This document shows positions 22,890 through 63,891 of a stretch of 64,000 nt of DNA, piece by piece. The position numbers and the translations under genes are program-made. The notes under the pieces were generated by a model. That model was not told the origin of the DNA. It did not search any database and worked only from the letters and a program-made list of their open reading frames with translations. How positions within the stretch are numbered: the stretch's first letter is position 1; every line of letters starts with the position of its first letter. The DNA is from Ophelia neglecta (lineage: Eukaryota): NCBI GenBank assembly GCA_965285935.1, contig OZ260661.1, forward strand, positions 139,252,001 to 139,316,000, in the 5' to 3' direction.

Positions 22890-25800
22890 ATTTTCACAAC
22901 AATGTGTGTACTGCTTCAGGGATTCACCTAGGCCATTTCTTAACTGTCTGATGACGTCATCTTGATGAGAAATCTGTAAAAACGTTAACACTCATAAAGC
23001 AAGGCATTTCAGTCAATTTTGAAAGGTTGTTACATAAATGTAGATATAAAAACATATCTGGAAATTTCTTACTGGAAAAAATTGATGTCATACACATGCA
23101 AAATGACATCACAGACCTGATGCCACATACTCGTCATTTGACATCACGTACCTGGTGTCACATACCTATATAAGGCTATATATCCAGCAGGTCTTTTTCT
23201 ACTTATAAAAAAGGTGCCAAATCTCCCTGCCTTTCTTATATGATGTTTATTATGATAGGAACATCGATCCCAGAATAGTGCTATGACACTTATCCATCTC
23301 ATCTGACAAGTTTTTCGCCCAAAGCCTGACTCTTCCCATTTGACTTCTCTCTGAGTAACATCATTATGAATATACGCGATGTCGCTCTATCCTGAACTAT
23401 ATCGCCCCCTTTCGTCGGGAAGATATGTGAATGTTTAGACTAAAAGACGCGAGGCCAGTTGTGTCCTTTTTGTGAAGCTCATTCTGATTGGACAGCATAT
23501 TTGCATGTCGAGTCGCATCTACCTGTCTCCTCTTTCTATTAATCACTACGTCCGCATGTTCTCCCCAACTATTGTACATTTATTCAAGGTTTTGAAAAAG
23601 AAATTGAAAGCTAAATATGCGTTGGTTTTTAGCTGCATAAATCATTGCAATGTGTGTACATCAATAAATTGGCCCATATTGACTTATATACCAATTATAT
23701 ATAGATCTATTTGACAAGTAGCGTTTATAACAGCTGGCGGGTTGTATTGGTTGGTTCAATAAATGACTAATGAATAAGACTGTGCCTAACAAGAATATTA
23801 AAATACACAGCCCAACCAGAGACTGTACACCTCACACACATAAAATTCACGAGCTAGCACATGTTTTTCATTGTCATGATAAACATATGTGCAAACTATG
23901 CAGTTAGGTTGTAGTTTTTTTTAAATGAGCTGTGTTTATTTTATCAATTCCATTGGATTATGACAAGGCAGGAAAAGACATTCTCTCAGCAAAATACATG
24001 TACATCTATTGAAAAAATGCTTTACAACGTTTAGATATTAAAGAACATCGCATAAACCTCGGTTGGAGAAAATATTACAATGCAAAGTAGTACAAGTGCT
24101 AGTGTTTCCCGTAAACCAACCAATAAAAGGACATACACTAAATCATATTTAAAAGTTTCTTCAAAAAGTTAATTGTCAGTGTGGGGAGGTATATAATATA
24201 TATGTAAAACACAGGATTAGATAATCAAAGATAGATAATGATTTAAGCTGTATTAGTCAACCTTATATTTTGGATTTGTTATTGCTTACAACTAAGTTAA
24301 AGAGATCGGTGACATAAAGTAGCCCCTTGATTAGTCAACTCTGACTTTGTTGACCTGTCTTTCCCCAGCATTAAGATCGCGTTCCAGCTCTTGCTTTAGC
24401 TCATACACTTTAGTTTCACGTCCATCTAGCTAGTTGTCAGGAAAAAATGTATTTCTCAGAACTTTGCAAGTGTAAATCGAGATCAAACATACAATTTTAC
24501 AAAAAGGATAATAAAAAGAAGTAATCAATATTCCTAATGGGAAAGCTCCCCACACGTAGGTATTACCTCATTACGACATGATTTGCTATGACGTGTTTTG
24601 TCTGGCTGTATCATTTCACTCTAGACACATCTAATAAACATGATATTATTTCTATTACACCACCATAGCAGCAGGTTTAGGAATCAGACAAAAAACCTGT
24701 CTAAAATCTGTTTCAAAAGCTGTGTACTCTAAACAACACTAAGTAACATATGAAGGATAGTCTCATGACTAATAGAGACATAATCAGTTAATTCACCGCT
24801 GTGTCATGCTCAGTGTGTACATTTATTATGCAACTGCCTAACGTCTTGTTTAGCACATTTTCTTGTACAATAACACATATCGTAGATAAAAGTAATGTCA
24901 TAAGCTGAATTCATGAAATCATGCAACAGGTTTCCATTTACACTGATACTAACTTGAATCCCATACACATGTGTTAACAGTATGTTACCAACCTCATCTC
25001 GCAACTGGTGCTTTTCCTCTTGACGCTGCCTTAAGTCATCTTCTAACTGTCTGATTTTCTTCTCATACTGTTTAAGCAATCAACAGGTTGAATACATTAG
25101 TTAATTCATTTGATAATGAATATATCTAAATTAAATATTTTGATGCTGCAACCTTAGGTTGGCCAGGTGGTAAAGTGGTAAAACTGGTATTGTAAAAGAC
25201 ATTTAATCAATTAATAAAATCAGATCCCTAGTTCATTACATTAAGTAGGTATAGATACGGGAACTAATCATTTAACCAATTTTAGTATATCCCGTTATCC
25301 AACCATGAAAAGGACAGTCACTAAATCATAATCAAAAGATGCTTCAAAAAGACAGTTGTCTGTGTGGAGAGTATATAATATACATGTTAAACACATGATG
25401 TGATAATCAAAATAAATATAGCACTCATTGCACAGACTTTGAGGACGTAGTCGTGGAACTCACCTCTGACTTTGAGTCATCGAACTTACTCTCCAGTTCC
25501 TTGGTTTGTTCATCTCTTTTTTGCAACTAAAAATGCACCAAAATAGCAGTGATATAAGTTATTATTTAATTTTACATTAGTCATGTTTTACTTTGAGATT
25601 CGATATTACTGAAAACAAAGTAACCGAGATCAGTGACATCAATGTAGCCCCTTGATAGGTCAACATTGACTATGTTGACCTCTCGACTCTTGGCGAAGGG
25701 TACTAAACTCATCCTCCCAGCTTTCCCAGCATTAAGATCGCGTTCCAGCTCTTGATTTACCTCATACAGAATAGTTTCACGTCCATCTAGCTAGTTGTCA

Positions 25801-28800
25801 GAAAAAAATGTATTTCTTAGAACGTTGCAAATGTAAATTTTGATCAAATTCGGAATGAAATACTGTCTCTGACATCATGACGGCAAAAGCATGACTTCGC
25901 ACAAACACACAATTTTACAAAAAAAGGATAATAATGAAGAAGTAATCAATAAATAACCATCTGAAAAGCTTTATCAGGATCGAAAGATAAAGGGTGTAGC
26001 TTCGTAATGGAAAAGCTCCCCCATACGCCCTGCATGATTTGCTATGACGTGTTTTGTCTGGCTGTATAAATACACTCTCGACACATCTAATTAACTGATT
26101 TTAATTCTATTACTCTGCCATATTACTAGGTACAGGCTTCAGACAAAGCCTGTCTAATAAACCGTGTAATATAAACAATTTGTTTTGAACTACAAATGTA
26201 AAAGATTAATTATTCCCCATAAACACTTCGTAGTTAAGTTCATATAACTGTTCATCACATTTTATGACCCTGAATCAGCCACAGCTTTTTATCATAGTAT
26301 AGGAGTTACTAACCCGGAGCTGGACATCCCTCTGCTCCTCCCTCAGCTGTTTAACCACTTCCTCTTCACGGTTGACAGTGGCCAGCGCTTGTCTGTGCTT
26401 CTCTTCCATCTTTTTGACAGCTGACTTCAGTTTAACTATGGCATCTTCACGCTCCGCTACCTTAGTGGTCAGGGCGTCCCGATTCTCATCGGAGGCGGTC
26501 TGCAATTTCTGGTAACTTGATGACAGCTTTTGTACCTGTGCATTGTATATAGATAAACGTGTGATGTTCTTTTGATACATCTATAGCCAATAGGATTTTT
26601 AGTAAGGCATTTGAACAATCAGAATAAAACATAAAACATTTAATAATGAGTCAATTCTTTATTTGTAAAAATTACTAAATTATTTTTGAACTACCAGTTT
26701 TCTGTGCCTACATCTCCGTCTTACTCATGCAGTTACCTGTGTCACAGAGTCGGCATGCTGAGCACGCACTGTCTTAAGTTCATTCTCCATGTCGGCATTC
26801 CGGGTACGCAGATCTTGCAGCTGTTAGAAGGAGACGATTAATCGAGGTGCTAACCAAAAGAAATGCCTGTGCAAAACAGGCCGCGTACAGTCACTGGTTA
26901 ATTCAATAATTGATTAATGAACAAAAATATGCCTGACAAGTACATTAAATTACGCATCCCAACCAGAGACTGTTCACCGCACACACACAAAATGCCCGAG
27001 CTAGCCCATGTATTTCTTGACATAAAAAATATGTATGCAAGCAGTGTAGTTAGGTCGTAGTGTTATAATGTGCTGCGTTAAGTATATCGCTCCCATCGGA
27101 TTTTATTAAGGCAGGAAAAGACATGATCTCAGAAAAATACATGTAAATGTTATGAGAAAATGCATTACAAAGTTGGGATTCTAAAGAACATTTTAGAAAC
27201 CTTGGTTGGGGGAGAACATTACGATGCAATATAGTACAAGTGCTAGTATTTCCCGTATGTAAACCATAAAAAGGACATGCACTATATCATATTCGAAAGT
27301 TGCTTCCACAAGATGATATAATCAAAGAAACATAGCACTCATTGCACAGACTTAAAAGAAATATTCGTGGGACTCACCTCTGACTTTGTGGCATCGAATT
27401 TGCTTACGGCATCATTCAGTTCTCTCTCTAGTTCCCTGGATCGGGCATCTCTTTTTTGCAACTAACAATGCACCAATAGCAGTGGTAAAAGTAATTATTT
27501 AGGTTTACATTAGTCATGTTTACATTGGGAGTCGATATTACTTAAAACAAAGTAAACGAGATTAGTGACATCAATGTAGTCCTTTCATTGGTCAACATTG
27601 ACTATGTTGACCTCTCGCCTCTTGGCGAAGGGTACTGAACTCATCCTCCCGCCTTTCCCCAGCATTAAGATCGCGTTCCAGCTCTTGATTTACCTCATAC
27701 AGAATAGTTTCACTTCCATCTAGCTAGTTGTCAGAACAAAATGTATTTCTCGGAAAGTTGCAAGTGTAAATTTTGATTAAATCCAGATTGAAATACTGTC
27801 GCTGACATCATTATGGCAAAAGCATGACTTTGCACAAACACCCAATTTTACAAAAAGGATTATAATAAAGAAGTTAACAATAAAAAACACCTGAAAAGTT
27901 TAAACAGAATGGTAAAATAAGGGGTGTATCTTCTTAATGGAAAAGCTCCCCCATACGCACCTCATTACGGCATAATTTGCTATGACGTGTTTTGTCTGGC
28001 TGTATCATTGCACTCTTGACACATCTAATTAACATAATTTTATTTCTAATACTCCGCCATATTACTAGGTTCAGGCATCAGATAGAACCTGTCTAATAAA
28101 CCGTGTAATATAAACAATTTGTCTTAAATTACAAATGTAAAAGATTAATTATTCTCCCATAAACACTTCGTAGTTAAGTTCATATAACTGTTCATCACAT
28201 TTTATGACCCTGAATCAGCCTTAGGAGTAACTAACCCGGAGCTGGACATCCCCCTGCTCCTCCCTCAGTTGTTTGACCACTTCCTCTTCACGCTCGACAG
28301 TGGCCAGAGCTTGTCTGTGTTTGTCTTTCAGCTCTTTGACAGCTGACTTCAGTTTAACTATGGCATCTTCACGCTCTGCTACCTTAGTGGTTAGGGCGTC
28401 CCGTTTCTCATCGGAGGCGGTCTGCAATTTCTGGTAACTTGATGACAGCTTTTGTACCTGTGCATTGTATATAGATAAAAGTATGATGTTCTTTTGATAC
28501 ATCTATAGCCAATAGCATGTTTAGCAAGGCATTTGAAAAATCAGAATAAAACATAAAACATTTAATAATGAGTCAATTCTTTATTTGTAAAACTTTCTAA
28601 ATTATTCTTCAACTACCGGTTGTCTGTGCCTACAGCTCCTTCTTACTCATGCAGTTACCTGTGTCACAGAGTCGGCATGCTGAACACGCACTGTCTTAAG
28701 TTCATTCTCCATGTCGGCACTCCGGCTACGCAGATCTTGCAGCTGTTAGAAGGAGACGATTAATCGAGGTGCTAACCAAAAGAAAAGCCATGTGCAAACC

Positions 28801-30970
28801 AATCTGCGTACAGTCATTGGTTAATTCAATAATTGACTGATGAACAAAACTGTGCCTGACAAGTACATTAAATAACCCAGCCCAACCAGAGACTGTACAC
28901 CTCACACACACAAAATGCCCGAGCATTCTTGTCATAAATAAATATGTATACAAGAAGTGTAGTTAGGTGTAGTGCTGTGTTTAGTTTATCACTCCCATCG
29001 GTTTATGACAAGGCAGGAACAGACATGCTCTCAGAAAAATACATGTACATGCTATGAGGAAATGCATTACAACGTGGGGATTTTAAAGAACCTTGTATAA
29101 ACCTTGGGTGGAGGAGAACATTACGATGCAATATAGTACAAGTGCTAGTATTTCCCATTTCCAACCATGAAAAGGACATGCACTAAGCCATATTCAAAAG
29201 GTTGCTTCAAAAAGTTAACTGTCAGGGTGGGGAGGTGTACTATATATATGTAAAACACAGGTATAGATGATCAAAGAAAATATAGCACTCTTTGCACAGA
29301 CTTTGAGGACATAGTTCTGGGACTCACCTCTGACTTTGAGTCATCGAACTTTCTCTCGGCTTCTTTTAGTTTACTCTCCAGTTCCCTGGATCGTTCATCT
29401 CTTTTTTGCAACTAAAAATGCACCAAAATAGCAGTGGTATAAGTAATTATTTAGGTTTGCATTAGTCAAGCCTAACTTTAGGATTGGATATTGCTAAGTT
29501 AAAGAGATCAGTGACATAAATGTAGCCCCTTGATTGGTCAACACTGATTTTGTTGACCTCTCGCTTCTTGGCGAACGGTATTGAACTTATCCTCCCAGCT
29601 TTCCACCAAATTACGATCGTGTTCCAGCTCTTTAGTTCCTACAATATAGTGTCCTCTCCATTCAGCAAGTTGTCAGGGAAAAATTGTTTCTAAGAAGGTT
29701 ACATGTGTAAATTTTGAAAAAATACAGATTGACATACAGTCGCTCACGACATCTTGATTACAAAAGGTACATTAATGAACCCAGGAGTTTCAGTTAATTA
29801 TGTATGGTTGTTATAAACAAAGTACATAATAATAAGCCATCTGTCAGAATGGAAATCTTCTTACCCGACAAACTAGAGGTCATTCACCAGTAAATTGACA
29901 TCACAAACCAGATATCACATACTTATACTGTTTTATAAAGCAGGACTTTTTCTACCTGTAAAAAGTGACAAATCCATCTGCTTTTTATAATAATAATAGG
30001 AAATTTGTATCCCAGAACATATCATAGTTCCACATATAATATTCCTATCATGCTTATCCATCTCATCTGACAATTTGTGAAGCCAAAACTTGACTTTTCC
30101 TACTTAGTGCTTCCCTGAGAAACAGCGTTATGAGTATAGGCGATGTTGTTCTATTCTTTCTCACCCTGCATTGAATATTTTGAGTGATTGGCAGATGGCC
30201 AGTTGTGTCCCTTTTGTGAGGCTTATTCTAACTGAACAGCTGATTTCCATGTCGAATCGTGTCTCGCTCTCTTCTGTTTTTGAACATCACTATGTTCGCA
30301 TGATCTCAACTATGGTCCTTTTATCTTATGATTTGCGAGGAATAAAAAGGGCTCAAGTTGACTTATATACCATTTATACAGTGATATATTTGATATGTGG
30401 TTTTTGTAACAGCTGCTTACATTTTTTTTACTAAAGAGTGTGCTATGTAGAGGCAAAGTATAATGTCAAGAGGCCGGAGCATGCTAGTGTGGGTACAATG
30501 TATGGCTGCTACTCTGGGCAACCTGGCGTCAAGCCATAGTAATTTCCTTGGACGATCAGCACTGGTAGTTAACGTATATTTAACATCTCTCTGAATGCAA
30601 TCACATGGCAACATATTAAAGAAAAATGTCTTGTCCCTCATCAAGACCCCTTTCCAGGTGAACTTATTTAATGGAAGAACAATCGTCCATGATTTATTAA
30701 TATGCTGCCAATTGCATGGCTTTGTGAAATGCAACATTCTTCTAGAAAATGTGATATAATACTGTGTACACCACTACTTACATCCTCATTAGCTGTCTTC
30801 TTGACGCTGTTCAGTTCAATCTGGGACTGGGCGAGATCTTCTTGAATACGCTTGATTGTCTCTGACTGACGTTGTAACCTCACAAGCGTCGCCTGACCGG
30901 GTTGGCTTGCTTGACGCAGCATGTCAATTTCAGCCTTCTGTCTCTGGATGGTGTCATTACGCTCGGCAAT
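22890..30970 (-). CDS. Coiled-coil exon array, proximal part; exons 30970-30782, 29411-29328, 28742-28659, 28457-28236, 27461-27378, 26820-26737, 26535-26314, 25526-25464, 25067-24993, 22973-22890
   Basis: Each block has AG/GT boundaries, phase 0-0, no stops, and E/K/Q/L-rich heptad sequence (e.g. LQKRDERSRELESKLKEAERKFDDSKSE; VQKLSSSYQKLQ...EEQRDVQLR). Confidence 0.75.
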
Positions 30971-31188
30971 CTGGAGGAATCACGTTTACACGTCAACACA
31001 GTTATTTATTAGGGCATTCCTATTTTATTCAAAATTAAGAAACGTCCTGATAATCTAATAAATATGTATGTGGTATAAGAGTTTGGAAAAGAAGTGGTTG
31101 GCCATTTTGGTAAGGATGTGGGTTAGATGACTCCTCATTCACTTCTACGGGACACATCAATAAATACTCCAGTGACACCTTCATACAT

Positions 31189-31552
31189 AGTAGAGACTGC
31201 TAATACAGCAGTTTCACCTACAGACAGGGCGGGCACCTCGTCCGAGATGCCGAGTACATCAAACCAACTAAGTCAAACAATTAAAACAAAACTACAACCG
31301 CTAAGAAACCAAACACCAACAACAACAAAACCAAAAAGTAAACCAAAGACACCACGCACAAACAGATCACAAAAGGGGGATGACAAAGTCTCCCTTTATA
31401 ACCGCTATGGTGCACTGTCTGGGAGTGAGGAGGAGATGGAGTGTAATGATCCCCCGTCTCGACCTCACCCCCCTGACACAGACCAAACAACACCAAAAAT
31501 TAATATAAAAATTAATCGAAACACTCCCTCTAACAAAGAAAATGGCAAATAA
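31189..31552 (+). CDS. C-terminal fragment of LINE ORF1
   Basis: S/T/P/K-rich tail with the SLYNRYGAL (NRF..L-type) motif, overlapping the ORF2 start. Confidence 0.65.
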
Positions 31553-34500
31553 ATCAATTCTCCAATGGAACATAAATAGTTTCGAATCAAATAGGCCTGA
31601 GCTAGAAACTCTAATGGACAGGAACCCCACAATCATATGTCTCCAAAAGACCAAAGCTAAAAATAATATTAAACTAAAATATTACACAAGCTACAACACT
31701 TTTTCTAAAGCTGTTGATGGCAGAGCTTGTGGTGGGGTTTCTGTCTTGGTACATAACCGAACAGCTCAGAGCAAAGTAACCCTGAACACAAACATGCAGG
31801 CGGTTGCAGTCAGGGTTACACTACATAAAACAATCACTATTTGTTCCATTTATTGCCCCCCTTCAAAACCATTAAACATAGACGATCTACAGTCTCTCCT
31901 GGACCAACTCCCAAGTCCTGTCGTTCTCCTCGGCGACTTTAATGCTCACAACCCTCTGTGGGGAGGAGACACGACAGACGACAAGGGAAGACGTCTAGAG
32001 GACTTCATACACACAAATAACTTGTGTACTTTAAACTCAGGTGCTCCTACCTTCCTGCACCCGGGAAACGGGGCACAGACATCAATAGATTTATCTCTCT
32101 GTGACCCCTCCCTCTTCCTGGACTTCAATTGGACCGTTCAGCCTGACCTCTGTGGCAGTGACCATTTCCCGGTGTGGTTGACCACAAACCACCCAGGGCC
32201 AAAAGAAGGGGTCCCGCAATGGAAACTGCGCAGAGCGGATTGGACTAAATTCACGACCCTCTGTGAAGAAAAAATTGTTCCAGAGACGTTCCAACGGGCT
32301 GAGGATCCGATGGATGCATTCACCACCATTGTCCATGACATTGCTGCTGAGTGCGTCCCGCGGTCCAGTGGTACACCAAAAAAACGATCCAAACCATGGT
32401 TTAACGAAGAATGCAGAGCAGCTATAAAAGAGAGACAAAAGGCCCTAAGACGTTTTAGACGTCATCCCATCCAGGCAAATTTGGACTCTTTTAAAATCCT
32501 TCGAGCCAAAGCTCGTAAGGTGGTGAGACAGGCAAAGAAGAGCAGCTGTCACAACTACGTGTCCCAGCTGAACCATCACTCTTCTTTGAAAAAGACCTGG
32601 GACGTAGTTCGGAAAATCAGTGGCAAAGGAGTGAGTCAAACAATAATCCACCTCACACACAATAACTCAACAATCACCGACACTATAGACATAGCAAACT
32701 GCCTCGGAGAGAGTTTCGCCCGAAACTCCTCTTCCCAAAATTATACCCACTCCTTTCAACAACATAAAAGAATACAAGAAAAAATCCCACTCAACTTCCA
32801 CACCAAACAAGACATGCCTTACAATAGATCAATAACAGTCCGTGAACTTCAGAGCTCCTTATCTAAAACCCACGATTCGGCCCCTGGTCCGGATCAAATC
32901 CACTACCAATTCCTCAAACATCTCCCCCCTAGTTCCCTCCAAATCCTCACGGACATATTCAACTTTATCTGGGAAACCGAAACATTCCCACCTTCGTGGA
33001 AAAAAGCAATAGTTATACCTATACCAAAACCAGGAAAAGATGCCACTGAAAGTACCAACTACCGTCCCATAGCTCTCACCAGCTGTCTCTGCAAGACCAT
33101 GGAGAGGATCATCAACGACAGACTTGTCTGGTTCCTCGAAACCAACAAGCTGTTAACGGTGTACCAATCTGGGTTCAGGAGGGGCAGGAGCACCATAGAT
33201 CATCTAGTTCGTCTCGAAACCTCTATAAGACAAGCCTTTGTAAGGGGCGAGCACTACGTTGCCATTTTCTTCGATATGGAGAAGGCATATGACACCACAT
33301 GGAAACATGGGATCATGAAAGATCTCAATGATTTCGGTCTCCGAGGCCTTCTCCCAAATTTTATCAAATATTTCTTAGACGACCGGTCATTCCAGGTTAG
33401 AATGGGGGCTACTCTATCTAACCCTTTTATCCAAGAAGCTGGCGTCCCACAGGGAGCCATACTGTCTGTCACTCTATTTACCATTAAAATAAACAGTATT
33501 GTTAAATGCGTGACAAGAAATACTGATCCCTCTTTATATGTGGATGACTTCCAGACAGGCTACAGATCACAGTGCATGCGCACGATAGAACGGCAACTGC
33601 AACTCTGTCTCAACAAATTACAAAAATGGTCGAACGAAAATGGTTTCAAGTTTTCCCCGTCAAAGACAGTCTGCGTTCACTTCTGCAGGAAGAAGAAACT
33701 CCATCCAGATCCAGAGTTAACCCTCAATGGATCTCCTGTTCCTGTAGTTGAAACATTTAAATTCCTTGGACTGCTCTATGACAAAAAACTCAACTTTCTC
33801 CCCCATATCAAATACTTGAGACAGAGTTGCCAAAAGGCGTTGAACCTCCTTCGTGTCGTGTCTAGCATGGACTGGGGTGCTGATCGCAAGGTTCTGTTAC
33901 ATCTATACCAGAGCCTTGTTAGATCAAAGCTTGATTATGGCTGTTTTATTTATGGATCTTCACCAAAGAGCTACATAAAGATGCTAAATCCTGTACAGAA
34001 CCAGGCCCTCCGTATATGCACTGGCGCATATCGAACATCTCCAAAGGACAGCCTGGAGGTGGAGGCATGCGTGCCTCCTCTTCACCTAAGAAGAGAGAGA
34101 CAAGGACTGCAATATGCAGTCAAGCTACACGCTGACCCTGCCAACCCTGCCTTCTCGAGTGTCTTTGACCCTCCGGACAGTGAACTATTTGCTACCAAAA
34201 ACACAATTCCTCCATTTGGTATCCGCATCAAGCAGTCCCTAGATAATCTGGGCGTTGAACTCAGATGGATTGCTGATGCCACACTGCCGAAGACACCACC
34301 ATGGACATATAAGCCACTGGTGGTGGACTGGTTTTTGGTCACTGGTAATAAAAACTACACTTCACCACTGATATATTGTACACGGCTCAATCAAATCCGG
34401 TCAGAAGTGTACCATGACCATACCTTTATCTTCACGGATGGGTCGAAGCTCGAGGAGAAAGTGGCGGCCATGCCTTCACCTCCAGGATGCGCCTCCCCGA

Positions 34501-35209
34501 TCACAGCTCCATTTTCACTGCCGAAATAACAGCCATAGATCTTGCTCTAGACCATATCATCCAGTCTAGAGACAGAAAATTTGTTATCGCGTCAGACTCA
34601 ATGTCGTCCCTCCAGGCACTAGAAAGGTTTAGCTGGTCTAACCCTTTGGTTCTCTCCCGGCGAGAAACCTTAAATAAAATCCTCAAAAGAGGAAAAACTG
34701 TTGTACTCCTGTGGGTGCCCAGCCACGTGGGCATCAAAGGCAATGAGGCTGCCGACAAATATGCAAAAGAGGCACTGGAAGATCCCATCTTTCCAATCAA
34801 AATCCCATCTTCTGACTTCAAGAGCCCAATAAACCAGTATGGCTGGAAACAATGGCAAACCGCCTGGGATCAGGCCATAGAAAACAAACTGCACTCTATC
34901 TGCCCCACCATACCGAAATCATTTCGACAGCCTCTTGCCTCCCGGAGGGACGACTTGATCATATCTCGACTGCGCATCGGCCACTCACATTATACACATA
35001 CTCACTTACTGAGAAAAGAAGACCCACCTTTTTGTGAGGGCTGCCAATGCCAGATAACCATCCAACACATTCTGTTGGAATGCAGCGATTTCGCCGAGGC
35101 CAGATACCATTTTTATAACGTTAACAACCTCAAAACCTTATTTGACAAGGTCTGCCCACGGCAGATTCTTGGTTTCTTGAGGTCTATAGATCTCTACTAC
35201 AAAATGTAG
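31542..35209 (+). pseudogene. LINE ORF2 (AP endonuclease, reverse transcriptase, RNase H, zinc knuckle), frameshifted at ~34470
   Basis: QWNI, GDFNAH and SDHFP (APE); YRPIALTS, DMEKAYD, GVPQG and YVDD (RT); FTDGSK then, in another frame, SIFTAE, SDSMS, WVPSHVGIKGNEAAD (RNase H); C..C...TIQHILLEC. Confidence 0.92.
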
Positions 35210-35521
35210 TAGATCTTAAACGTGAAAACCATTTTTAAAATGCGAAAGTTTATGGAACTTTCTTTTATCTATTTATTGAACAACTAACCTTTTATGTTCC
35301 TTTACTAACACATTTTAGTCAGAAAAACAGCTGACCCAACACCACCTAGAAAATTTTTATGAAATAGAGCTCAATAACCTCTTACTTCTTACGAATATCC
35401 CCATGTAAATAAAAATAGACAGTACAATGAACAATAAACACCAAACTTAAGACACTAAATGACCCACATGGTGTCTATGTGTCGTTAAGCCCCAAAAATC
35501 CAAACCAAATCCTTCATACAT

Positions 35522-36406: not shown

Positions 36407-39400
36407 CTCTGACTTTGAATCATCGAACTTTTTCTCGGCTTCATTCAGTTTACCCTCCAGTTCCCTGGATCGTTTATCTCTTTTTTGCAACTAAGAAAGC
36501 ACCAATAGCAGTGGCAAAAATAATTATTCAGGTTTACATTAGTCATGTTTACATCGGGAGTCGATGCCCATGCTCATGTTTACAATGGGAGTCGATATTA
36601 CTAACAACAAAGTAAACGAGATCAGTGACATAAATGTAGCCCCTTGATAGGTCAACACTGACTTTGTTGACCTCTCGCCTATTGGCAAATGGTATTAAAC
36701 TCATTCTCCAAGCTTTCCCCAGCATTAAGATCGCGTTCCAGATCTTGCTTTAGTTCATACACTATAGTTTCACGTCCATCTAGCTAGCTGTCAGGAAAAA
36801 GTACCTTTCTCAGAACGTTGCTAGTGTAAATTTTGATCAAAATTTGATTGAAATACTGTCGATGACATCATGATGGCAAATGCATGACACAAAAACCCCA
36901 TTTTATAAAAAGGATAATAATAAAGAAGTTATCAATAAAAAAAACCACCTGAAAGATTTAAACAGAATGGTAAAATAAAGGTTTAGCTTCTTAATGGGAA
37001 AGCACCCCCACACGCAGGTATTACCTCATTGCGGCATGGTTTGCTATGAAGTGTTTTGTCTGGCTGTATCATTTCACTCTTGACACATCTAATAAACATG
37101 ATATTATTTCTATTACACCACCATAGCAGCAGGTTTAGGGATCAGACAAAAAACCCGTCTCAAATCTGTCTCAAAACTTATGAACTCTTAACAACTCTAG
37201 ATAACATATGAATGATAGTCTCATGATTAATAGAGACATACTCAGTTAATTCACCGCTCTGTCATGCTCAGTGTTTATATCTATTAAGCAACTGTCTAAC
37301 TACTTGCTTAGCACATTTTTTGGTACAATAATTCATATCGTGTTTAAAAAGTAATGTCATAAACTTAATTCATTAAATCATGCAAGAAGTCTCCATTTAC
37401 ACTGATACTAACTTGAATCCCATACACATGTGTTAACAGTATGTTACCAACCTCATCTCGCAACTGGTGCTTTTCCTCTTGATGGTGCCCTAAGTCATCT
37501 TCTAACTGTCTGATTTTCTTCTCAAACTGATTAAGCAATTAACAGGTGGAATGAATAAGTTAATTCCTTTGATAATGAATATATATCTAAATTAAATATG
37601 TTGATCAAGATGGCAAAAGCATGACTTTGCAGAAACACACAATTTTTCCAAACGGATAATAATGAAGAAGTAATTAATAAAAAAAACCACCTGAAAAGCT
37701 TTAACAGGATCAAAAGATAAAGGGTGTAGCTTCTTAATGGAAAAACTCCGCCATACGCAGGTATTAACTTATTACCTCATTACGGTTTGATTTGCTATGA
37801 CATGTTTTGTCTGGCTGTATCAATGCACTATTGACACATCTAATTAACATAATTTTATTTCTAATACTCCGCCATATCACTAGGTTTAGGCATCAGACAA
37901 AAGCTGTCTAATAAATCGTGTAATATAAACAATGTGTCTTAAATTACATATGTAAAAGATTAATTTTTCTCCCTTAATCACTTCGTAGTTAAGTTCATAT
38001 AACTGTTCATCACATCTTATTTCCCAGAATCAGCCTCAACTTTTATCATAGTATAGGAGTTACTAACCCGGAGCTGGACATCCTTCTGCTCCTCCCTCAG
38101 CTGTTTGACTACTTCTTCTCGACGGTTGAAAGTAGCCAGAGCCTGTCCTTGTTTCTCTTCCAGGTCTATGACGGTAGACTTCAGTTTAAATATGGTATGT
38201 TCACGCTCCGCTACCTTCGTGGTCTGGGCTTCCCGATTCTCCTCGGAGGAGGTCTGCAGTTTTTGGAAACTTGATGACAACTTTTGTACCTGTGCATCGT
38301 ATATAGATAAACGTATGTTATTTTTATACATCTATGTTCAATAACATATTCAGCAAGGACATTTGTACACTTATAATAATGAGTCAATCCTTTATTTGTA
38401 AAACTGTCTAAAGTATTTTTGAACTACCGGTTGTCTGTACAGTCATTGGTTGATTCAATAAGTGACAAGTGAACAGATCTGTGGCTAACAAGAACATTAA
38501 AATACACAGCCCAACCAGAGACTGTACAGCTCACACACACAAAATTTCCGAGCTAGCACATTTATTTCCTTGTCATAAATAAACATATCTGCAAACAGTG
38601 TAGTTAAGTTGTAGTGTTATAATATACTGTGTTTGTTTTTATCAACTCCATCGGATTATGACAAGGGAAGAAAAGACATGCTCTCAGCAAAATACATGTA
38701 CATCTGATGAGAAAATGATTTACAACGTTGTGATGTTAAAGAATATCGTAGAAACCTCAGTTGGGGAGGATATTATGATGCAAAGGAGTACAAGAGCTAG
38801 TGTTTCCCGTAAACCGACCATTCAAAGGATATGCACTAAATCATAATCAAAGTTGCTTCAAAAAATTATTGTCAGTTTGGGGAGGTATACTATATATGTG
38901 TAAAACACAGGATTAGATAATCAACAAAATATAACACTTATTGCACAGACTTTGAAGACATAGTCGTGGGACTCACCTCTGACTTTGAGTCATTGAACTT
39001 TCTCTCAGCTTCATTCACTTTACTCTCCAGTTCCTTGGATCGTTCATCTCTTTCTCGCAACTAAAATAGCATCAAATAGCACTGATATATATAATTATTT
39101 AAGCTTGCATTAGTCAAGCTTAACGTTTGTATTTGATATTACTAACAACAAAGTGAAAGAGATCAGTGATCAGTCCCTTGATTGGTCAACACTGAATTTG
39201 TTGACCTCTCGCCTCTTGGCGAACGGTATTGTTCCTATCCTCCCAGCTTTCTACCAAATTACGATCGCGATTTTGCTATTGCTTTATTTCCTATGATATG
39301 GTCTCAATCATCCAGTTATTTGTCAGGAAAATATTTATTTCTTAGAAGTTTACATGTGTAAATATTGTTCAAATACAGATTGAAAACAGTCGCTCACGTT

Positions 39401-40193
39401 ATCTTGATGAGAAATCTGCAAACAAAGGTTTATCATGGGATTTGCGAGAAAGTAGTTTTGACCTCAATACATCATTGCAAAGTGTGTAGATCAATATAGA
39501 ATGGGCTCAAATTGAATATACCAATTATACAGTAATATTTGATATGTGGTTTTTGTAACCGCTGCTTTCATATTTTAATTGGCCCATGAAGCCGCAAAGT
39601 ATATCATGAGGCCGGGGCAAGCTAGTGGGGGACAAATTAGGGCTGCCACTCAGGGTAACGTGGCGTCAACTCATAGTAACTTCCTTGGACGATCAGAACT
39701 TAGAGAGTTAACGTATATTTAACAACTCTCTGAATGCAAACATAAAAAAAACACCTTGTCTTATCGCCCGACAGGTGAACTTGGTGTTGCAGACTTACTT
39801 AATGGAAAAACAATCGTCAATGATTAATTTACATGCAGCCAATTGCATGGTTTTGTGAAAAACCAAACATACTTTAAGAACTTTTCATGCATCACTTTTG
39901 AGATATCAATTGCTTGTCTTCAAATGTTCTTACCAAAATGTAATTGTTTGCTAATTATAATTTACTGGATTCATATGCCAAGTAAATATATGGCCACTAC
40001 TCACATCCTCATTAGCTTTCCTCCGGACGCTGATCAGTTCAATCTTGGACTGAGCGAGACCTTCTTGAAGACACTTGATTGTCTCTGACTGAAGTTGTAC
40101 CTCCACAAGCGTAGCCTGATGGGGCTGACTTGCTTGACGCAGAATGTCTACTTCAGTATCCTGTCTCTGGATTGTGTCATTACGTTCTGCAAT
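36407..40193 (-). CDS. Coiled-coil exon array, distal part; exons 40193-40005, 39060-38977, 38289-38068, 37526-37452, 36490-36407
   Basis: Paralogs of the proximal exon types. All are open, phase 0-0, with canonical splice sites. Confidence 0.72.
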
Positions 40194-44200: not shown

Positions 44201-45004
44201 GTTACATTAATACAGTATACAGCATCAAATTGCCAGTATATGGCAACCCCCCCCCCCCCCCCCGTCCCTTGCGATACCCTAGGCCTTGTGGCCTCATCTT
44301 TTATATTTATTCTTAAATGTATCAGATAAATAAACTAACTTGGTAACAACACTGCAGCTACTGCGTGTGGTTGCCTCTATTTTTTATTACTTATTGCTAC
44401 CACCATGAGCATGAAGTAATGCAATTCCATCGATATCACACTTGCATACTAATCACCCAATTCAAATGACTTATTGTAAAAACTTATGTAAAAGACGACG
44501 AAATGCAACTCGAAATGAAGCAGAAAGGATGGGGTAGTAGTTTGGAAAAAGGGTCAAACGATGTTTGGTCAATGCGTTTAATTATAGCAAAAAGAAATAT
44601 TATACAGATATTGCTAAAGAAGCAACGTGCAATTATATTGACCAGAATCGAGTCGTAGTCTGCGAGAGCTTTATCTTGAGGAAACTATCATTTACTGAAA
44701 TGCACTGAAGGCACAGGTGAAAAACAATCGCCAGTTTCTTTTTTCCTTTTAATTAGTATTTCGTCTTTAGATATTTTATTGCCTTTCCTTTATTAAAATT
44801 AGTGTCCTCGAAATAGAAATTCGTAGCTTGGTAATAATAATTCATTCCTTTGAAAAATTATTCCGTATCTTCGAAATAATAATGCACTCCTTTGTGTTAT
44901 GCTATGTCATAAATTGAATACTTCTAATGGCCTGCCTTCTGAGTTGGTTGGTGTGTTAACATGTGCAGCACACAGAGAGGTAACCATATTAACATAGTAA
45001 CATA

Positions 45005-45070
<66 letters not shown>

Positions 45071-47497
45071 GCGTATCTGCGTATACAACTTACCATTCAG
45101 TAGGAAGAGACTGCAATAGAAGAAGGGCATATTCAGCTGCATCCTGCTGGGAGCCAATCTCGAAATTACCAGCCAGCTCTGAAGAAAAAAAATTTAAGGC
45201 CTTACTGACAATCTCCCTTTGACAGCGCTCAAGCAGTATTCACATTGCAGCAAGATCATTGTGCATTCAAATGAAATGTCCCAAGCAAAGTGCGGTTTTG
45301 AACCTTTCAGAGAAAATGTCATCATATAATCAGTATTTTATAACGAAACGAGTATCATTCATTGGTTGACTACTTTGTGGTAGTGTAAACCAAATGATAT
45401 TAATAAAACAAAAGCTGCATGGGGTACACCGATAAAATATTCCAGGTATGGATGAATCATTTATATCTTATCAGATCTTTGCGATCAAAATAATACAATA
45501 CTAAAACTTTAACCGTTTAGAGACTCTGTTAGTTCTGTTGGCGTTATAGGAGATCCCACACGTTCTTGAAAAAACCGTCTGGCCACAAGTGCCAACTTGC
45601 CACAAAACAGACATTCTGTGTTGAAGCCTACCATTAATAAAACAACAAAATGATTTCATGAAGTTATACTCGTTCTCAGTATGCCATGCATTATAAAAGG
45701 AGCAATGGAAATGTTACTAAGTTATAGATAACTATTATACAACTCAATTATAGATTTTATGCTATATATAATTACAATAAATGCTTATATCATAAAAGTA
45801 ATGTTTCATACATGGATCCCTGGACGTCAAGAAATGCTCTTTTGCCGGCTGCGTGTTCAGAAAACACTGGGCAACCGCGTTCAAATAACAAGTATTCCCG
45901 ACATTCTTGAGACCAGTACTAACTATGAAAAAAAGGATTCCATTGAGAATTGACACTTAAGCAAACAACATATGTTTTTCTTTATTTCCTATTTTTGTTT
46001 TCTATTACATGTCCTTGCAAAATTGACATTTGATAGGCCTGGTGATAAAGCGTATGACTACTGACGGAGCATGTGCATGTTATCATGTGGTTAAGAAAAA
46101 ACGCCTGAAAATGGTACATTGTACCTCAGATTTTCCCAGCATACATTAATGTTTAAAGTCAATGTGAAATTTAGATGACCACACAAAATTATGTTATGTG
46201 TTTTAAGTGGGTATTAATATAAATCGTGTATAAACGAGTGTGAATAAAAATATCGTTCATCCTTGGATTGATTTTTGAGTTTAAGGTGTATTTTGTTTGA
46301 TTCCAGATGTCCACAAGAATAACTCAGTTGGTCAAAAAAAGACAACACAAATCTTGGTATTTAAAATTATTCAAATTAGTAAAAAAAAATCAATGAAGTT
46401 ACATCGACATCGGATTTTAAACTATACATATTATAAATTTAAGCATGGTTTTAAGTATCTTTTTAATCAGGAAGCCTAACCAAATAGTATTATATACGTT
46501 TCCGGCGCAATCATGGCCGCTTATAGCCCATATGTAGCTCTCGGTTCAACAATCACTCTAACACTTTAGAGAACTGTCCTTGCACTTGACTAAGTCTAGG
46601 AAAGAATGTCAGCCCATCATACATTCACGCATATTCTAAGGTCATGCATATCATATGATCAATTACATGTATGCACACGAAGGTGGTGAGTGCCCAATAC
46701 CATCATCTACTGTGTAGTTTACCATGTTATTACAAGTATTGACTTGATGGATTAAAGACCCCCCCCCCTCTCTCTCTCTCTCTCCCAATTGTCTTTTGAA
46801 GTTTTGCTCAAGAGGACCATCCAGACTATACTAGTCTATTATTACCGTATGACTATTTCCGAAGCACTGATGTTGTTGAACAAAACTTTGATAAAACGAG
46901 TGTTCCGTGCAATTATAAGATCTTAGGTCGTTCTCCCTGCTATAAAGCATAGCACAGTAAATAAGGTACATCGTATTATTCAATGTACTATCTTACCGCT
47001 GTTGACATAGATTTAAATTGTTTAAACTGTGTGGATCGGCTGTTCGTGTACTCGTGCATTGATTGTTTGCTTAATACACATATTGATATTACATTCGTCG
47101 ATAGCTCAAACTTGTGACAGAGTTAATTAAGGAACAAGGCGCGGGTTGCTTTGCAGCGGAGGGAGGGTTGGGTGGGGCGGGGGGAGTTGTGGTGGTGGGT
47201 GGCAAACAAGACTCACACTATTTGTTGCTTTCTTCGATATAATAAAGGGTGCCATGTCTAAATAAACTTTGTCGTAGGAATCAATTCCATGTGTGTAACG
47301 TTTGCCTCTGCTTCATACTGAGAAGTTCACACTCACATGGTATATTTTCTTACGACAAGGTTTTTTCAGACATGGTACCCTTTGTTAATGTTAAAGAAAC
47401 ATACCGACTGTGTGATTGATGTCCCCCCCCACACCACCACCACCACCAAAATTGCAAACCTCGCCTAGTTCGTTAATTTATTGTGTCCTAAATATTT

Positions 47498-47568
<71 letters not shown>

Positions 47569-54014: not shown

Positions 54015-57094
<3,080 letters not shown>

Positions 57095-57881: not shown

Positions 57882-60800
57882 ATTTTCACAACAATGTGTG
57901 TATTGCTTCAGGGATTCACCTTGGTCGTTTCTTAACTGTCTGATCACGTCATCTTGCTGAGCAATCTGCCAAGAAAGTTTACAATAAAAAAGCGAGGTAT
58001 TTCAGTCAATTTTTGTAAGGTTGTTACAAAAAATGTAGATATAACAAGTCATCTGGAAGTTTTCAAAATTGATGTCATACACATTTAAAATAACATCACA
58101 CACCTGATGTCACATACTCGTCAATTGACATCACGTACCTGGTGTCAGATACTTATATAAGGCTATGTATCAAGCAGGGCTTTTTCTACTTATGAAAAAG
58201 TTGCCTAATCTCCCTGCCTTTCTTATGTGTTATTTTATAATGTAAGGAACATCGATGTGAAACACAGGATTAGATAATCAAAGAAAATACATCACTCATT
58301 GCAGACTTTTAGGATATTGTCGTGCGACTCACCTCTGACTTTGAGTCATCGAACTTTCTCTCGGCTTCCTCCAGTTTACTCTCTAGTTCCCCGGATCGTT
58401 CATCTCTTTTTTGCAACTAGAAATGCAACAAAATAGCAGTGGTAAAAGTAATTGTCAGCACGTACTGTCTCCGTTTAAGCAGAACTTGCAGTTGTGAGAA
58501 GGAGACGATTTAGTTAGGTGCTACCCAAAAGAAAAGCCACGTGCAAATCAGTCTGCGTACAGTCACTGGTTGATTCAATAATTAAAGCAGATATACACAG
58601 ACGCAGCCTAACCAGAGACTGTACACCTCATACACACACAATTCCCGAGCTTGCGCATGTTTATCCTTGTCATAAAGGAACTTATCTGCAAACACGGTAG
58701 TTAGGTTGTAGATTTATAATGTACTGTGTTGATATTTTTATTAACTCCATCGGATTAAGGCAGGAACAGACATGCTCTCAGCAAAATACATGTACATGTT
58801 ATGAGGAAATGCTTAACAACGTTGGATGGTAAAGAACATCGTAGAAATCTCGGTTGGGGGAGAATATAAAGATGGAATGTAGTACAAGTGCTAAAGTTTA
58901 CCGTAAACCAACCATGTAAAGGACATGCACTAAATCATATTCAAAAGTTGCTTCAAAAAGGTTATTGTGCGTGTGGGGAGATATACTATATATGTGTAAA
59001 ACATAGGATTAGATAAAAAAAAAATATAACACTCATTGCACAAACTTAAGACATATTCGTGGGACTCACCTCTGACTTTGAGCCATCGAATTTTCTCTCG
59101 GCTTCTCTCAGTTCTCTCTCCAATTCCCTGGATCGTTTATCTCTTTTTTGCAACTAAAAATCACCAAAATATCAGTGGTAAAAAGTAAATATTTTAGCTT
59201 ACATTAGTCAAGCTTCACTTTGGAAGTCATGTTTTACTTTGGGAGTCGATATTATTGAAAACAAAGTAAACAAGATCAGTGACATCAATGTAGTCCTTTC
59301 AGTGGTCAACACAGACTTTGTTCACCTCTCGCCTCTTGACGAAGGGTATTAAACTCATCATCCCATCCTTCCCCAGCATTAAGATCGTGTTCCTTCCCTT
59401 GCTTTAGCTCATACACTATAGTTTCAATTCCATCTAGCCACTTGTCAGGAAAAAATTCTCTCAGAACGTTGCAAGTGTCAATCTTGATCAAATTCATATT
59501 GAAATACTGTCAGGATGGCAAAAAAATGACTATACACAAACACCCAATTTTACAAAAAGGATAATAATGAAGAAGTTATCAATAAAAAAAACATCCGAAA
59601 AGTTTTAACAGAATGGTAAAATAAAGGGTATAGCTTCTGAATGGGAAAGCTCCCCCATACGCAGTTATTACCTCATTACTGCATGACTTGCTATGACGTG
59701 TTTTGTCTGGCTGTATCATTTCACTCTTGGCTCATCTAATAAGAGGCCAAACAAAAAAACTGTCTAAAAGCTGTCTCAAAACCCATGAACTATAAACAAT
59801 TTGTTCTACATAACTTATGAAGGATAGTGTCATGATTAATAGAGACATTATCAGTTAATTCACCGCTGTGGCATGCTCACTGTTTATATCTATTAAGCAA
59901 CTGTCTAACAACTTGCTTAGCACATTTTTTGGTACAATAATTCATATCGTGCATAAAAAGTAATGTCATAAACTGAATTCATTAAATCATGCAACAAGTC
60001 CCCATTTACACTGATACTAACTTGAATCCCATATACGTGTGTTAACAGTATGTTACCAACCTCATCTCGCAACTGGTGCTTTTCCTCTTGATGGTGCCCT
60101 AAGTCATATTCTAACTGTCTGATTTTCTTCTCAAACTGATTGAGCAATCAACAGGTTGAATACATTAGTTAATTCATTTGATAATGAATATATCTACATT
60201 AAATATTTTATGCTGCAACCTTAGGTTGGCACTGGTGGTTAAAATGGTAAAACTGGCATTGTAAAGTACATTTAATCAAATAATATTATCAGATCCCTAG
60301 TTCATTACATTAAGTAGGTATGGAAATAATATTATCAGATCCCTAGTACATTACATTAAGTAGGTATGGATACGTGAACTAATCATTTAACAAGTTTTAG
60401 GATTTCCAGTTAACCAACATTGAAAAGGACAGTCACAAAATCATATTCAAAAGTTGCTTCAAAAAGACAATTGTTTGTGAGGGGAGGTATACAATATATA
60501 TGTAAAACACAGGAATTAGATAATCAAAGAAAATACAGCACTCATTGCACATACTTTGAATACATTGACGTGGGACTCACCTCTGACTTTGAGTCATCGA
60601 ACTTTTTCTCGGCTTCATTCAGTTTACTCTCCAGTTCCTTGGTTTGTTCATCTCTTTTTTGGAACTGAAAAATGCACCAAAATAGCAGTGATATAAGTTA
60701 TTATTTACGTCTGCTTTAGTCATCCTTAACTTTGGGACCCTTGATTGGTAAACACTGACTTATTTGACCTCTCGCTTCTTGGCGAACGGTATTGAACTTA

Positions 60801-63800
60801 AACTCCCAGTTTTCCACCAAATTACGATTGTGTTCCAGCTTTTGCTTCAGTTCCTACAATATAGTTTTCCCTCTATCCAGCAAGTTGCCAGGGAAAAAAT
60901 TGTTTCTAAGAAGGTTGCATATGTAAATACAGATTGACATACAGTCGGTCCCGACATCTTTATGAAAAATCTGTAAACCAAGGGTACATTAATGAAGCCA
61001 GGTGTTTCAGTTAATTTTGAATGGTTGTAGAATAAATAGATAACAATAAGCCATCTGGAAGAATGGTAATAGTCTTTCCCGGCAAACCTGAGGTCGTACA
61101 ACTGTAGAGTGACATTACACACCTGATATCACATACTTGTACTGTGAAGCTATTTATCTAGCAGGGATTTTCTACTTGTAAAAAGTGACAAATTCCTCTG
61201 CTTTGGCTTTGTGTTAACGGCGAAAGCGAACGCTTCGGCTAAAGCGGCATGGCCTCTTAAATTGAACTAATATGAACACAATAATAACCCTACCCTTTCC
61301 CATTTATATCAAAAACAAAATTGAGATGTCTGGGTTAGGGTTGGGTTATAAAATAACTGATATTTTAGATTATTGTGTCACCAATGCTGCTTTCGTCGAA
61401 GCTTTCGCTTTTGCCGTTAACACAAAGCCATCTACTTTATATAATAATAAGAGGAATATTGTATCCCATCATAGTTCCACATAATATAGTGCTATCATGC
61501 TTATCCATCTCATCTGACAATTTTTGAACCAAGAACTTGACTTTTCCCACTTAGTGCTTCCCCAAGAATACGCGATGTTGCTATATCCTTTCTCATGCTG
61601 CAATATATTGCCAGCATTAGTCGGGAAGATGATTGAATGTTTTGACTTATTGGCAGGTGGCCAGTTGTGTCCCGTTTGCGAATCTTATTCTAACTGAACT
61701 GCAGATTTCCATGTCGAATCGCGTCTCCCTCTCTCTCTTTCTGAACATCACTACGTTTGCATGATCTCAACTATTGTCTTTTTATCCTGGGATTTTGCGA
61801 TGAAGTAGTTTAGAACTCAATAGATAATTACAATGTATGTAGATCAATAGTAGAATGGGCTCAAGTTGACTTTTATACCAATTAACCATGAGACGCCAAG
61901 GGTTTAGATGCTTTGAATATTAACTAGCGATTCGCCACCCAATAATTGCTTACGGTTTTTCTAGTAATATTTTTCATTAGTTTTCTGACACATTAACAAC
62001 GTTGCCCTAGAGTGGTGTTTTGTATCACCCAGGGGCTGACCCTGCCACAGCTTTTTATCATAGTGTAGGAGTTACTAACCCGGAGCTGGACATCCTTCTG
62101 CTCCTCCCATAGCTGTTTGACTACTTCTTGTCGATGGTTGATAGTGGCCTGAGCCTGCCCGTGTTTCTCTTCCAGCTCTTTGACAGTAGACTCCAGTTTA
62201 ACTATGGTATCTTCACGCCGTGCTACCTTAGTGGTCAGGGCCTCCCGATTCTCCTCGGAGGAGGTGTGCAGTTTCTGGAAACTTGATGACAGCTTTTGTA
62301 CCTATGCATCGTATATAGATAAACGTATGATGTTCTATTTATACATCTATAGCCAATAACATATTCAGCAAGAACATTTGTACACTAGAATAAAAAATAA
62401 GGCATATAATAATGAGTCAATTCTTTTTTTGTAAAACTGTCTAAAGTAATTTTGAACTACCGGTTGTCTGTACAGTCACTGGTTCATTCAATAAATGACT
62501 AATGAGAAGAACTGTGCCTAAAAAGAACAATATACAGAGACTGTACACCTCACACACACAAAATTCCAGAGTTAGCAAATGTATTTCCTTGTCATAAATA
62601 AGCATATCTGCTAACAGTGTAGTTATGTTGTAGTGTAATAATGTGCTGTGTTTGTTTTATCAACTCCCATCGAATTATGACAAGGCAGGAACAGACATGC
62701 TCTCAGCAAAATACATGTACATCTTATGAGAAAATGATTTACAACGTTGCAATGTTAAAGAAAATCGTAAAAACTTCGGTTGGGGAGAATATTACGATGC
62801 AAAGTAGTACAAGAGCTAGTGTTTCCCGTAAACCAACCATGTAAAGGACATGCACTAAATCCTATTCAAAGTTTTTTCAAAAAGTTAATTGTCAGTGTAG
62901 GGAGGTATACTATATATATGTGAAACGCAGGATTAGATAATCAAACAAAATATAACACTCATTGCACAGACTTAAGACATATTCGTGGGACTCACCTCTG
63001 ACTTTGAGTCCTCGAATTTTCTCTCGGCTTCTCTCAGTTCTCTCTCCAGTTCCCTGGATCGTTCATCTCTTTTTTGCAACTAAAAAGCACCAATAGCAGT
63101 GGTAAAAGTAATTATTTAAGCTTGCATTAGTCAAGCTTAACTTTTGGATTTGATTATTTACAACAAAGTAAAAGAGATCAGTGAAATAAATGAAGCTCAA
63201 TTCAAAAAATCATTACAATGAGAGTAGATCAATAAGAGAATGGGCTCAAGTTGACGAATATACCAATTATACAGTAATATTTGGTATGTGGTTTTTATAA
63301 CCGGTGCTTTCATTTTATACTAAAGCTTGTGCCATGAAGCGGCAAAGTATGTCATGAGGCCGGGAAGCTGTTAGAAGGAGACGATTAATCAAGGTGCTAA
63401 CCAAAAGAAGAGCGATGTGCAGAACAGTCTGCGTACAGTCACAAATACATTAAATAACTCAGCCCAACCAGACACTGTACACCTCACACACACAAAATTG
63501 TGTAAATTTGTGTAAATTATGTAAATGTTATAAGGAAATGCATTACAATGTTGGGATGTTAAAGAATATTGTAGAAACCTTGGGTGGGGGAGAACATTAC
63601 GATGCAATATAGTACAAGTGCTAGTATTTCCCCTATTACAACCACGAAAAGGACATGCAGCAAATCATATTCAAATTTGCTTCTAAAATGTAATTGTCAG
63701 TGTTGGGAAGTATACTATGTATATGTAAAACACAAGATAAGATGACATAATCAAAGAAAATATAGCACTTATTGCAAAGACTTAAAAGACATAGTCGTGG

Positions 63801-63891
63801 GACTCACCTCTGACTTTGAGTCATCGAACTTTTTCTCGGCTTCATTCAGTTTACCCTCCAGTTCCCTGGATAGGTCACCTCTTTTTTGCAA
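57882..63891 (-). CDS. Coiled-coil exon array upstream of copy 3 (continues beyond the window); exons 63891-63808, 63079-62996, 62301-62080, 60664-60581, 60135-60061, 59153-59070, 58416-58333, 57965-57882
   Basis: Same exon types as the copy-2 array but in different order and number. All are open and phase 0-0. Confidence 0.72.
61205..61429. mobile_element. MITE, Mutator-like (225 bp)
   Basis: TIRs ggctttgtgttaacggcgaaagcgaacgcttcg / cgaagctttcgcttttgccgttaacacaaagcc. Imperfect 9-bp TSD ctctgcttt / atctacttt; the paralogous empty site near 29976 has a single atctgcttt. Confidence 0.8.

Follow-up and report, generated by a model that had tools for sequence, protein, structure and literature searches.

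Duplicated PMFBP1-like exons in DTX3L-like genes of Ophelia neglecta, likely spliced in frame as a helical rod of variable length

The minus strand of a 64,000-nucleotide stretch of Ophelia neglecta DNA (the window, on contig C1 of this 762-Mb animal genome) and of the 200 kb examined on each side of it bears a cluster of tandem genes whose last domains are a macrodomain, a RING and a Deltex C-terminal domain (DTC). Ahead of these domains lie arrays of short exons which, judged from alignment, were almost certainly captured from a PMFBP1-like donor gene. Taken as a whole, the observations are best read as duplicated PMFBP1-like exons in DTX3L-like genes, likely spliced in frame as a helical rod of variable length; we put the probability of this reading at about 65 per cent. 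Splicing was inferred throughout from AG/GT boundaries, phase and open frame.

Exon arrays and their donor gene

Between positions 22890 and 63891 the window contains 23 exons of six types on the minus strand: A (84 nt, ten copies including one of 63 nt), B (84 nt, two), C (84 nt, two), D (189 nt, two), E (222 nt, four) and F (75 nt, three). A preliminary description of this DNA had given the same types, counts and lengths, and had noted indel-rich introns and intact exons throughout. The flanks do carry many non-triplet deletions, and all 23 A-F exons are free of stops and bounded by AG/GT, but the statement on intactness fails for a seventh type that had been missed, G (105 nt), none of whose seven window copies is intact at the boundaries used in the donor gene. 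With capitals for intact exons and lower case for those that are not, the order is DAEFgADgABEgABEgAFgC in the left locus and (gABF)AAEgAFgAAC in the right locus, the part in parentheses lying outside the window; the two orders are unlike, as had been described. The position of C, said to be always last before the macro exon, holds for only these two of the eight loci; F is last in five of the six others.

Outside the cluster, a genome search with E and another with D each hit a single place, on contig C5 (one of 15 and one of 8 matches, respectively). There, at ~41.543-41.558 Mb, F, G, A, B, E, D and C occur once each, in that order, in a gene that is single-copy (one match among 50 candidates). 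Exons and neighbouring introns of this donor can be aligned with the cluster copies at ~68-82% DNA identity, the donor-derived cover amounting to ~14.5 kb (D53375-67850), and the captured exons share 56-82% protein identity with the donor exons. Because the donor introns align in the cluster, DNA and not mRNA must have been copied. Retrotransposition of the segment was ruled out since the introns came along, and an independent origin of the six modules was ruled out by the donor gene. Seven further donor exons, five inside the captured segment and two outside it, left no trace in the cluster.

Along its length the donor model (1454 aa) matches shark PMFBP1 in collinear order (XP_072452086.1; E 1e-87, 25.5% over 1477 aa), the best off-diagonal match having an E value of 3e-23. 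A search with one donor exon returned 78 matches, and among the ten looked up the named long ones were PMFBP1-like proteins of sharks and rays or were uncharacterised. The PMFBP1 assignment covers eight of the 78 matches in a one-way search, with CCDC18 outside the comparison; we take the protein to be PMFBP1/CCDC18-like. All 23 modelled donor exons are phase 0, and their lengths are 7n residues in 16 cases and 7n+4 in seven (boundaries were chosen by hand among AG/GT candidates, and three weaker candidates are outside this count). The hydrophobic fraction at donor exon positions 1, 8 and 11 is 0.78, 0.87 and 0.78, and donor and captured exons alike have hydrophobic peaks at these positions when counted from the exon start, and at the corresponding ones when counted from the exon end. 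Every exon starts near the heptad 'a' position, on a hydrophobic core position; heptad/hendecad periodicity across junctions was read from such position counts. With phase 0 throughout and lengths of 7n or 7n+4 residues, any subset of donor exons keeps the frame and the heptad register, and the symmetry of the captured exons was inherited. The idea of a purpose-built kit did not survive this comparison: phase and lengths are properties of the donor gene, and the order consists mostly of donor-order blocks. Complex prediction with two copies of exon E gave a score of 0.21 against a mark of 0.32, which speaks neither for nor against pairing.

In the donor gene itself a 62-nt minisatellite at C5 41549880-41551400 comprises ~24 repeats of the end of exon E together with its splice-donor region. 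The gene next to the donor (C5 41504600-41512800) has a KH-rich and RS-rich N-terminus, and presumably resembles PRP4 kinase.

Over 464 kb the cluster has eight arrays with 129 A-F copies, 115 of them intact; with 42 G copies this makes 171 derived copies. Intact copies number 54/61 for A, 9/12 for B, 2/2 for C, 7/7 for D, 14/15 for E, 29/32 for F and 0/42 for G, and outside the window 92 of 106 A-F copies are intact. A locus has between 8 and 28 intact exons, coding for a rod of 261-979 aa, so that rod length varies between loci by exon gain and loss, in line with the earlier proposal; if helical, with a rise of 0.148 nm per residue, the rods would measure 39-145 nm. The compatibility of the exons in frame and register was also borne out, by their starts near heptad 'a' and by their being in frame with the macro-RING-DTC exons. 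Adjacencies within the arrays follow the donor order in 82 of 163 cases (mean 28, maximum 43 in 2000 shuffles), the commonest being GA, AF and FG; block duplication accounts for most of the arrays' growth. Deltex copies that bear a rod group as a single clade (9 of 18 rows; support 90/95), a topology consistent with a single capture event into one Deltex clade.

Selection on the reading frame of the array exons

The G donor site, GT in the donor gene, is GT in none of the 42 cluster copies (GC in 38, TC in one, deleted in three); the acceptor is lost in eight copies, and 17 of the 39 scored contain stops. G as a regular exon was rejected on the donor-site count, weak use of GC donors being conceivable in open copies. 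G could thus serve as a dead control for the other types.

Distinct variants were compared with a neutral spectrum, copy-to-donor alignment being noisy in the flanks. In A-F 2 stops were found where 20.6 were expected (P 2.6e-7), and in G 5 against 4.8 (A-F versus G, Fisher P 0.006); a second count gave 3 against 20.4 for A-F and 6 against 4.7 for G. The depletion was seen in singletons (2 against 10.7, P 0.0016) and in the remainder (1 against 9.7), and the A-F exons of the window alone had no stop against 7.8 expected. Proline gains numbered 5 against 15.8 expected in A-F and 1 against 3.9 in G. The pooled dN/dS of A-F was 0.87, that of the DTC exon 0.32. Because stops were purged from A-F and not from the dead control G, the frame of A-F is under selection; their amino-acid sequence hardly is.

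Genes around the arrays

The Deltex part was recognized by Pfam (zf-RING_2, E 3e-10; DTC, E 3e-33). The spliced models of both window loci run without an internal stop from their first rod exon through the DTC to its stop codon (1641 and 1226 aa). In the left locus a large open exon with a phase-0 acceptor, containing a KH-like region and a PARP14-type macrodomain (20191..22318), is followed by an exon with the macro end, the RING and the DTC start (19378..20042), a DTC exon (18997..19214) and the last DTC exon with the stop (18800..18869). The corresponding exons of the right locus, also on the minus strand, are at 55489..57094 (KH-like/macro, open), 54594..55336, 54212..54429 and 54015..54084. 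Behind the left locus there is a second macro-RING-DTC copy (11594-14032), nearly identical to 18753-20855, whose large exon is without its first 1.5 kb and acceptor; it is either a truncated duplicate or an alternative 3' end.

The DTC is closest to that of human DTX3L (best PDB match 3pg6, E 1.2e-27; 98 bits versus 70 for DTX1/2, a comparison of scores only), and the macrodomain to that of PARP14. Catalytic residues were mapped on the assumption that the 159-aa DTX3L chain ends at 740. The His and the Glu are aligned and kept, and the Tyr is replaced by Phe; in DTX3L these residues are H707, E733 and Y719, as numbered in a preprint (bioRxiv 10.64898/2026.04.23.720386). KH-like matches were all below threshold (KH_PARP14_6, E 0.085 in the window; KH_DTX3L, E 9e-5 and 0.007 in paralogues). 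No N-terminal RRM was seen in the modelled rod loci, and RRM_PARP14_3 was above the cut-off in six of eight upstream pieces, from four rod-less kinase paralogues.

In five other loci C is gone together with the 5' part of the large exon, through a deletion that left another phase-0 acceptor; this junction occurs a sixth time, apart from its array. At one locus (window -59755) a deletion has joined exon A in frame to a point midway through the RING exon, which predicts a macro-less rod-RING-DTC form. Judging from these gene models, we consider it quite likely that in at least some loci the rod is translated in frame with the Deltex part.

Read along the minus strand, the left array comprises D (40005..40193), A (38977..39060), E (38068..38289), F (37452..37526), a G pseudo-exon with a GC donor and a stop (36679..36783), A (36407..36490), D (30782..30970), a 101-nt G pseudo-exon with a stop and a lost acceptor (29565..29665), A (29328..29411), B (28659..28742), E (28236..28457), an open G pseudo-exon with AG/GC boundaries, for which weak splicing is possible (27619..27723), A (27378..27461), B (26737..26820), E (26314..26535), a 104-nt G pseudo-exon with a TC donor (25687..25790), the 63-nt variant of A, from which one heptad is deleted (25464..25526), F (24993..25067), a G copy with its original donor deleted (24355..24429) and C (22890..22973). 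In the last of these G copies the deletion puts a weak GT in phase 0 at the end of an open 75-nt stretch (25 aa, 7n+4), so that the exon has possibly been re-activated. In the intron ahead of the second D exon a LINE-type retrotransposon sits antisense to the gene, on the plus strand (31127..35512, ends approximate), with endonuclease and reverse transcriptase and with an RNase H-like open reading frame (ORF) in another frame. The right array, on the same strand as the left, consists of A (63808..63891), A (62996..63079), E (62080..62301), a G pseudo-exon with a stop and a lost acceptor (60776..60880), A (60581..60664), F (60061..60135), another G without acceptor (59333..59437), A (59070..59153), A (58333..58416) and C (57882..57965), and runs on beyond the window with A, B and F up to 66126.

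Upstream of D, four of the eight loci have a complete USP (peptidase C19) domain of ten exons. In the left locus of the window it occupies 41298..45922 on the minus strand, with exons 1-5 at 45922-45812, 45627-45514, 45178-45094, 42893-42841 and 42663-42593, and exons 6-10 at 42495-42425, 42329-42252, 41913-41820, 41700-41578 and 41384-41298. All four copies are open with AG/GT boundaries, and their 295-aa exon model contains GNTCY, QQDA, GHY and YNDS, which we take to represent the Cys, QQD and His boxes and the Asp motif; Pfam UCH matched on two of the boxes. With all ten exons present, the possibility that the USP is a fragment was ruled out. A genome search with the USP exons (four matches among 14 candidates) revealed no closer relative elsewhere. 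The last USP exon has a phase-0 donor ~1.1 kb ahead of D, and no AATAAA or ATTAAA lies between USP and D in three of the four copies. Gene order and phase slightly favour a USP that is joined to the rod. An intron of the USP at the 104k locus contains a Helitron (window ~112800-121300) with a 1353-aa Rep and PIF1 helicase ORF.

To the left of the window one locus has an ATG exon, a kinase (HRD, DFG), a linker and the USP in a 644-aa open frame. The other three USP copies, including that of the window, have lost the kinase by a ~6.8-kb deletion (junction of the window copy near 46145) and are ~99.5% identical to each other. The right locus follows the 5' end of a rod-less paralogue, with an 11-codon phase-0 candidate first exon (window+69135) that matches the one of the paralogue. 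A comparison of upstream ORFs between the loci revealed no conserved long first exon. The order kinase-RRM-macro-RING-DTC was found in all four other C1 loci examined (139.52-139.64 Mb and 136.34-136.37 Mb), which have a kinase, several PARP14-type RRMs, a large macro exon, RING and DTC; because the kinase comes first in each of them, kinase-led Deltex genes appear to be the local norm. From this gene order we infer that in the rod clade USP and rod take the place of the RRMs.

Possible origins and functions of the rod

A segment of the single-copy PMFBP1-like gene almost certainly entered the macro-RING-DTC genes of a single DTX3L-like clade. Five of its exons were lost there and G was deprived of its GT donor; the rest were multiplied by tandem block duplication into the eight arrays. 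In the preferred scenario selection would maintain an open helical spacer rather than a particular sequence, and unequal crossing-over in an array that tolerates shifts of register would change the length of the rod. Such a rod could dimerise the ligase, allowing paired macrodomains to read ADP-ribose avidly, and could hold an N-terminal kinase or USP away from the C-terminal reader-ligase. That the rod is a dimerising spacer we regard as an evenly balanced proposition. Its length is probably tolerated more than tuned, active tuning being possible. A young family of ubiquitin-editing chimeras, with kinase, USP, a register-preserving rod of 40-145 nm, macrodomain and Deltex RING-DTC in a single chain and with exon copy number and skipping setting the reach between the eraser and the writer that reads ADP-ribose, is a doubtful proposal.

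Several observations weigh against the length-variable rod. Maximum-likelihood dN/dS, which covers A, B, D, E and G (F, and C with its two copies, are outside), was 0.96, 1.28, 0.69, 0.86 and 0.75 with likelihood-ratio values of 0.25-2.2; values near 1, which the preliminary description had named as grounds for abandoning its proposal, are thus what was found (0.69-1.28, no significant departure from 1). Hydrophobic-to-polar changes numbered 13 against 19.0 expected in the cluster (P 0.10) and 2 against 7.5 in the window only (P 0.02). Because hydrophobic loss is not depleted cluster-wide and G is proline-poor too, the helix signal is weak. Array copies share ancestry and gene conversion, which makes the variant counts not fully independent, and the A-F types were first picked for being open in the window. 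The macro, RING and DTC exons are open in only four of the eight loci; three of the others have 1-nt or frame-breaking indels and one is rearranged, two loci being broken by single-base changes in short homopolymers. For the left locus no start codon was found in a scan that took in phase-0 donors only, the USP exon needing phase 1, and in the right locus a broken large exon between the candidate first exon and the rod would have to be skipped. In the only locus to have both an ATG and a kinase, the macro exon shows a 1-nt insertion, which may or may not be real since contigs without it come from paralogues, and two F copies are frameshifted, at 53 nt. Finally, the USP frame also reaches a stop 8 codons past the donor, and the USP may be a separate gene that ends there.

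Part of this evidence would fit a formerly functional chimera, selected early, that is now largely decaying, in which recent segmental duplication spread promoterless or broken copies, the left locus among them, and length variation reflects neutral slippage. The near-identical USP copies without kinase exons, the broken or rearranged C-terminal part in half of the loci, the 14 broken copies among the 106 outside the window, the LINE and Helitron insertions in introns and the dN/dS values all point in this direction. Decay accords poorly, however, with the depletion of stops in singletons and in the window, and with the open frame that both window loci keep between rod and stop; we consider it rather unlikely. 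The range of rod lengths over the eight loci and the 49 DTC and 61 kinase matches in the genome could also be ascribed to a diversifying ruler or ligand-binding stalk, whose length and sequence are actively selected, by balancing or positive selection, and whose exons are skipped to produce many isoforms. A dN/dS near 1 could mix purifying and positive sites, and mammalian DTX3L is described as being under positive selection in a preprint (bioRxiv 10.64898/2026.04.23.720386). Yet no exon type has a dN/dS significantly above 1, block duplication in donor order accounts for the arrays without selection on order, and frame compatibility was inherited from the donor, which makes this explanation improbable. 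Least probable by far is a separate coiled-coil transcript, either a truncated PMFBP1-like or a USP-rod product, interleaved with the Deltex genes but not joined to them. It draws on the fact that joining is inferred from phases only and on the lack of a closer USP relative elsewhere; against it, no stop-bearing terminal exon lies between the arrays and the phase-0 macro exon, new phase-0 acceptors arose where the deletion entered the large exon, exon A is fused in frame to the RING in one locus, and only a single Deltex clade has arrays ahead of it.

A search for transcripts listed no RNA run. Contigs from three public runs of one sample also contain window DNA, but behave as DNA contigs and yield no isoforms; these runs may be the assembly's own source.

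Exon shuffling with symmetric phase-0 modules proceeds by insertion at a phase-0 intron and tandem duplication. The arrays resemble this process in both respects and differ from its usual form in that the modules are pieces of one coiled coil whose heptad register is kept, and in that a single genome displays the donor, every copy and a dead exon that serves as control. The donor is collinear with shark PMFBP1 and the captured exons resemble it; unlike in PMFBP1, seven of ~25 exons are kept, multiplied and reordered inside a ligase gene. In TRIM proteins a coiled coil dimerises a RING ligase with variable ends, and A20 combines a deubiquitinase and a ligase in one chain. By comparison, the rod loci have no B-box, their RING is C-terminal and of Deltex type and their rod is repeat-built and variable; their deubiquitinase is a USP, not an OTU.

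With macro-bearing DTX3L of non-tetrapods the genes share the C-terminal RING-DTC and the PARP14-like macrodomain, oyster LOC133171516 being another macro, RING and DTC protein. They differ from DTX3L by a rod of 260-980 aa from another gene in place of the N-terminal RRMs, by the USP upstream and, in one locus, a kinase, and by their tandem clustering, with at least 49 DTC matches in the genome. Oligomerisation is reported to be required for efficient ADP-ribose reading by human DTX3L (PMC10955461), the DTX3L macrodomain is described as having been lost when PARP9 arose, the macrodomain-bearing form being older (bioRxiv 10.64898/2026.04.23.720386), and PARP9 and DTX3L together are said to mirror the domains of PARP14 (PMC13224862); for the terms searched, the last source contained nothing about fusions in invertebrates. 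Searches for longer protein relatives (1, 2 and 1 matches) revealed no rod-Deltex or kinase-USP fusion, which is weak evidence. A literature search by title and start of abstract, with most subscription papers and the preprint's lists of invertebrate DTX3L architectures outside its reach, found no description of this architecture. Macro-Deltex proteins and exon shuffling are known; captured and amplified rod exons of PMFBP1-like type, together with a kinase and a USP in frame, were not found in the literature searched.

With a single-copy donor, 171 copies and an internal neutral control, the cluster documents with unusual completeness how a gene was built by exon capture, and it shows that selection on a spacer can go unnoticed behind a dN/dS near 1. 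Should USP and kinase be joined to the rod, an ADP-ribose-reading ligase would have its own deubiquitinase at a variable distance, and natural variants would allow a direct test of what linker length and oligomerisation do in DTX3L-type ligases. Genome-wide DTC matches (49 of 54 candidates) lie mostly on C1 at 136-143 Mb. The expansion of kinase-RRM-macro-Deltex genes suggests a lineage-specific defence family, an immune role being proposed by analogy with mammalian DTX3L. Between window -166400 and -149400 the minus strand has a kinase with RRM-like, KH-like and DTC-start sequence after it; on the plus strand a degenerate kinase precedes a PARP14-like stretch, a WWE and a possible PARP domain.

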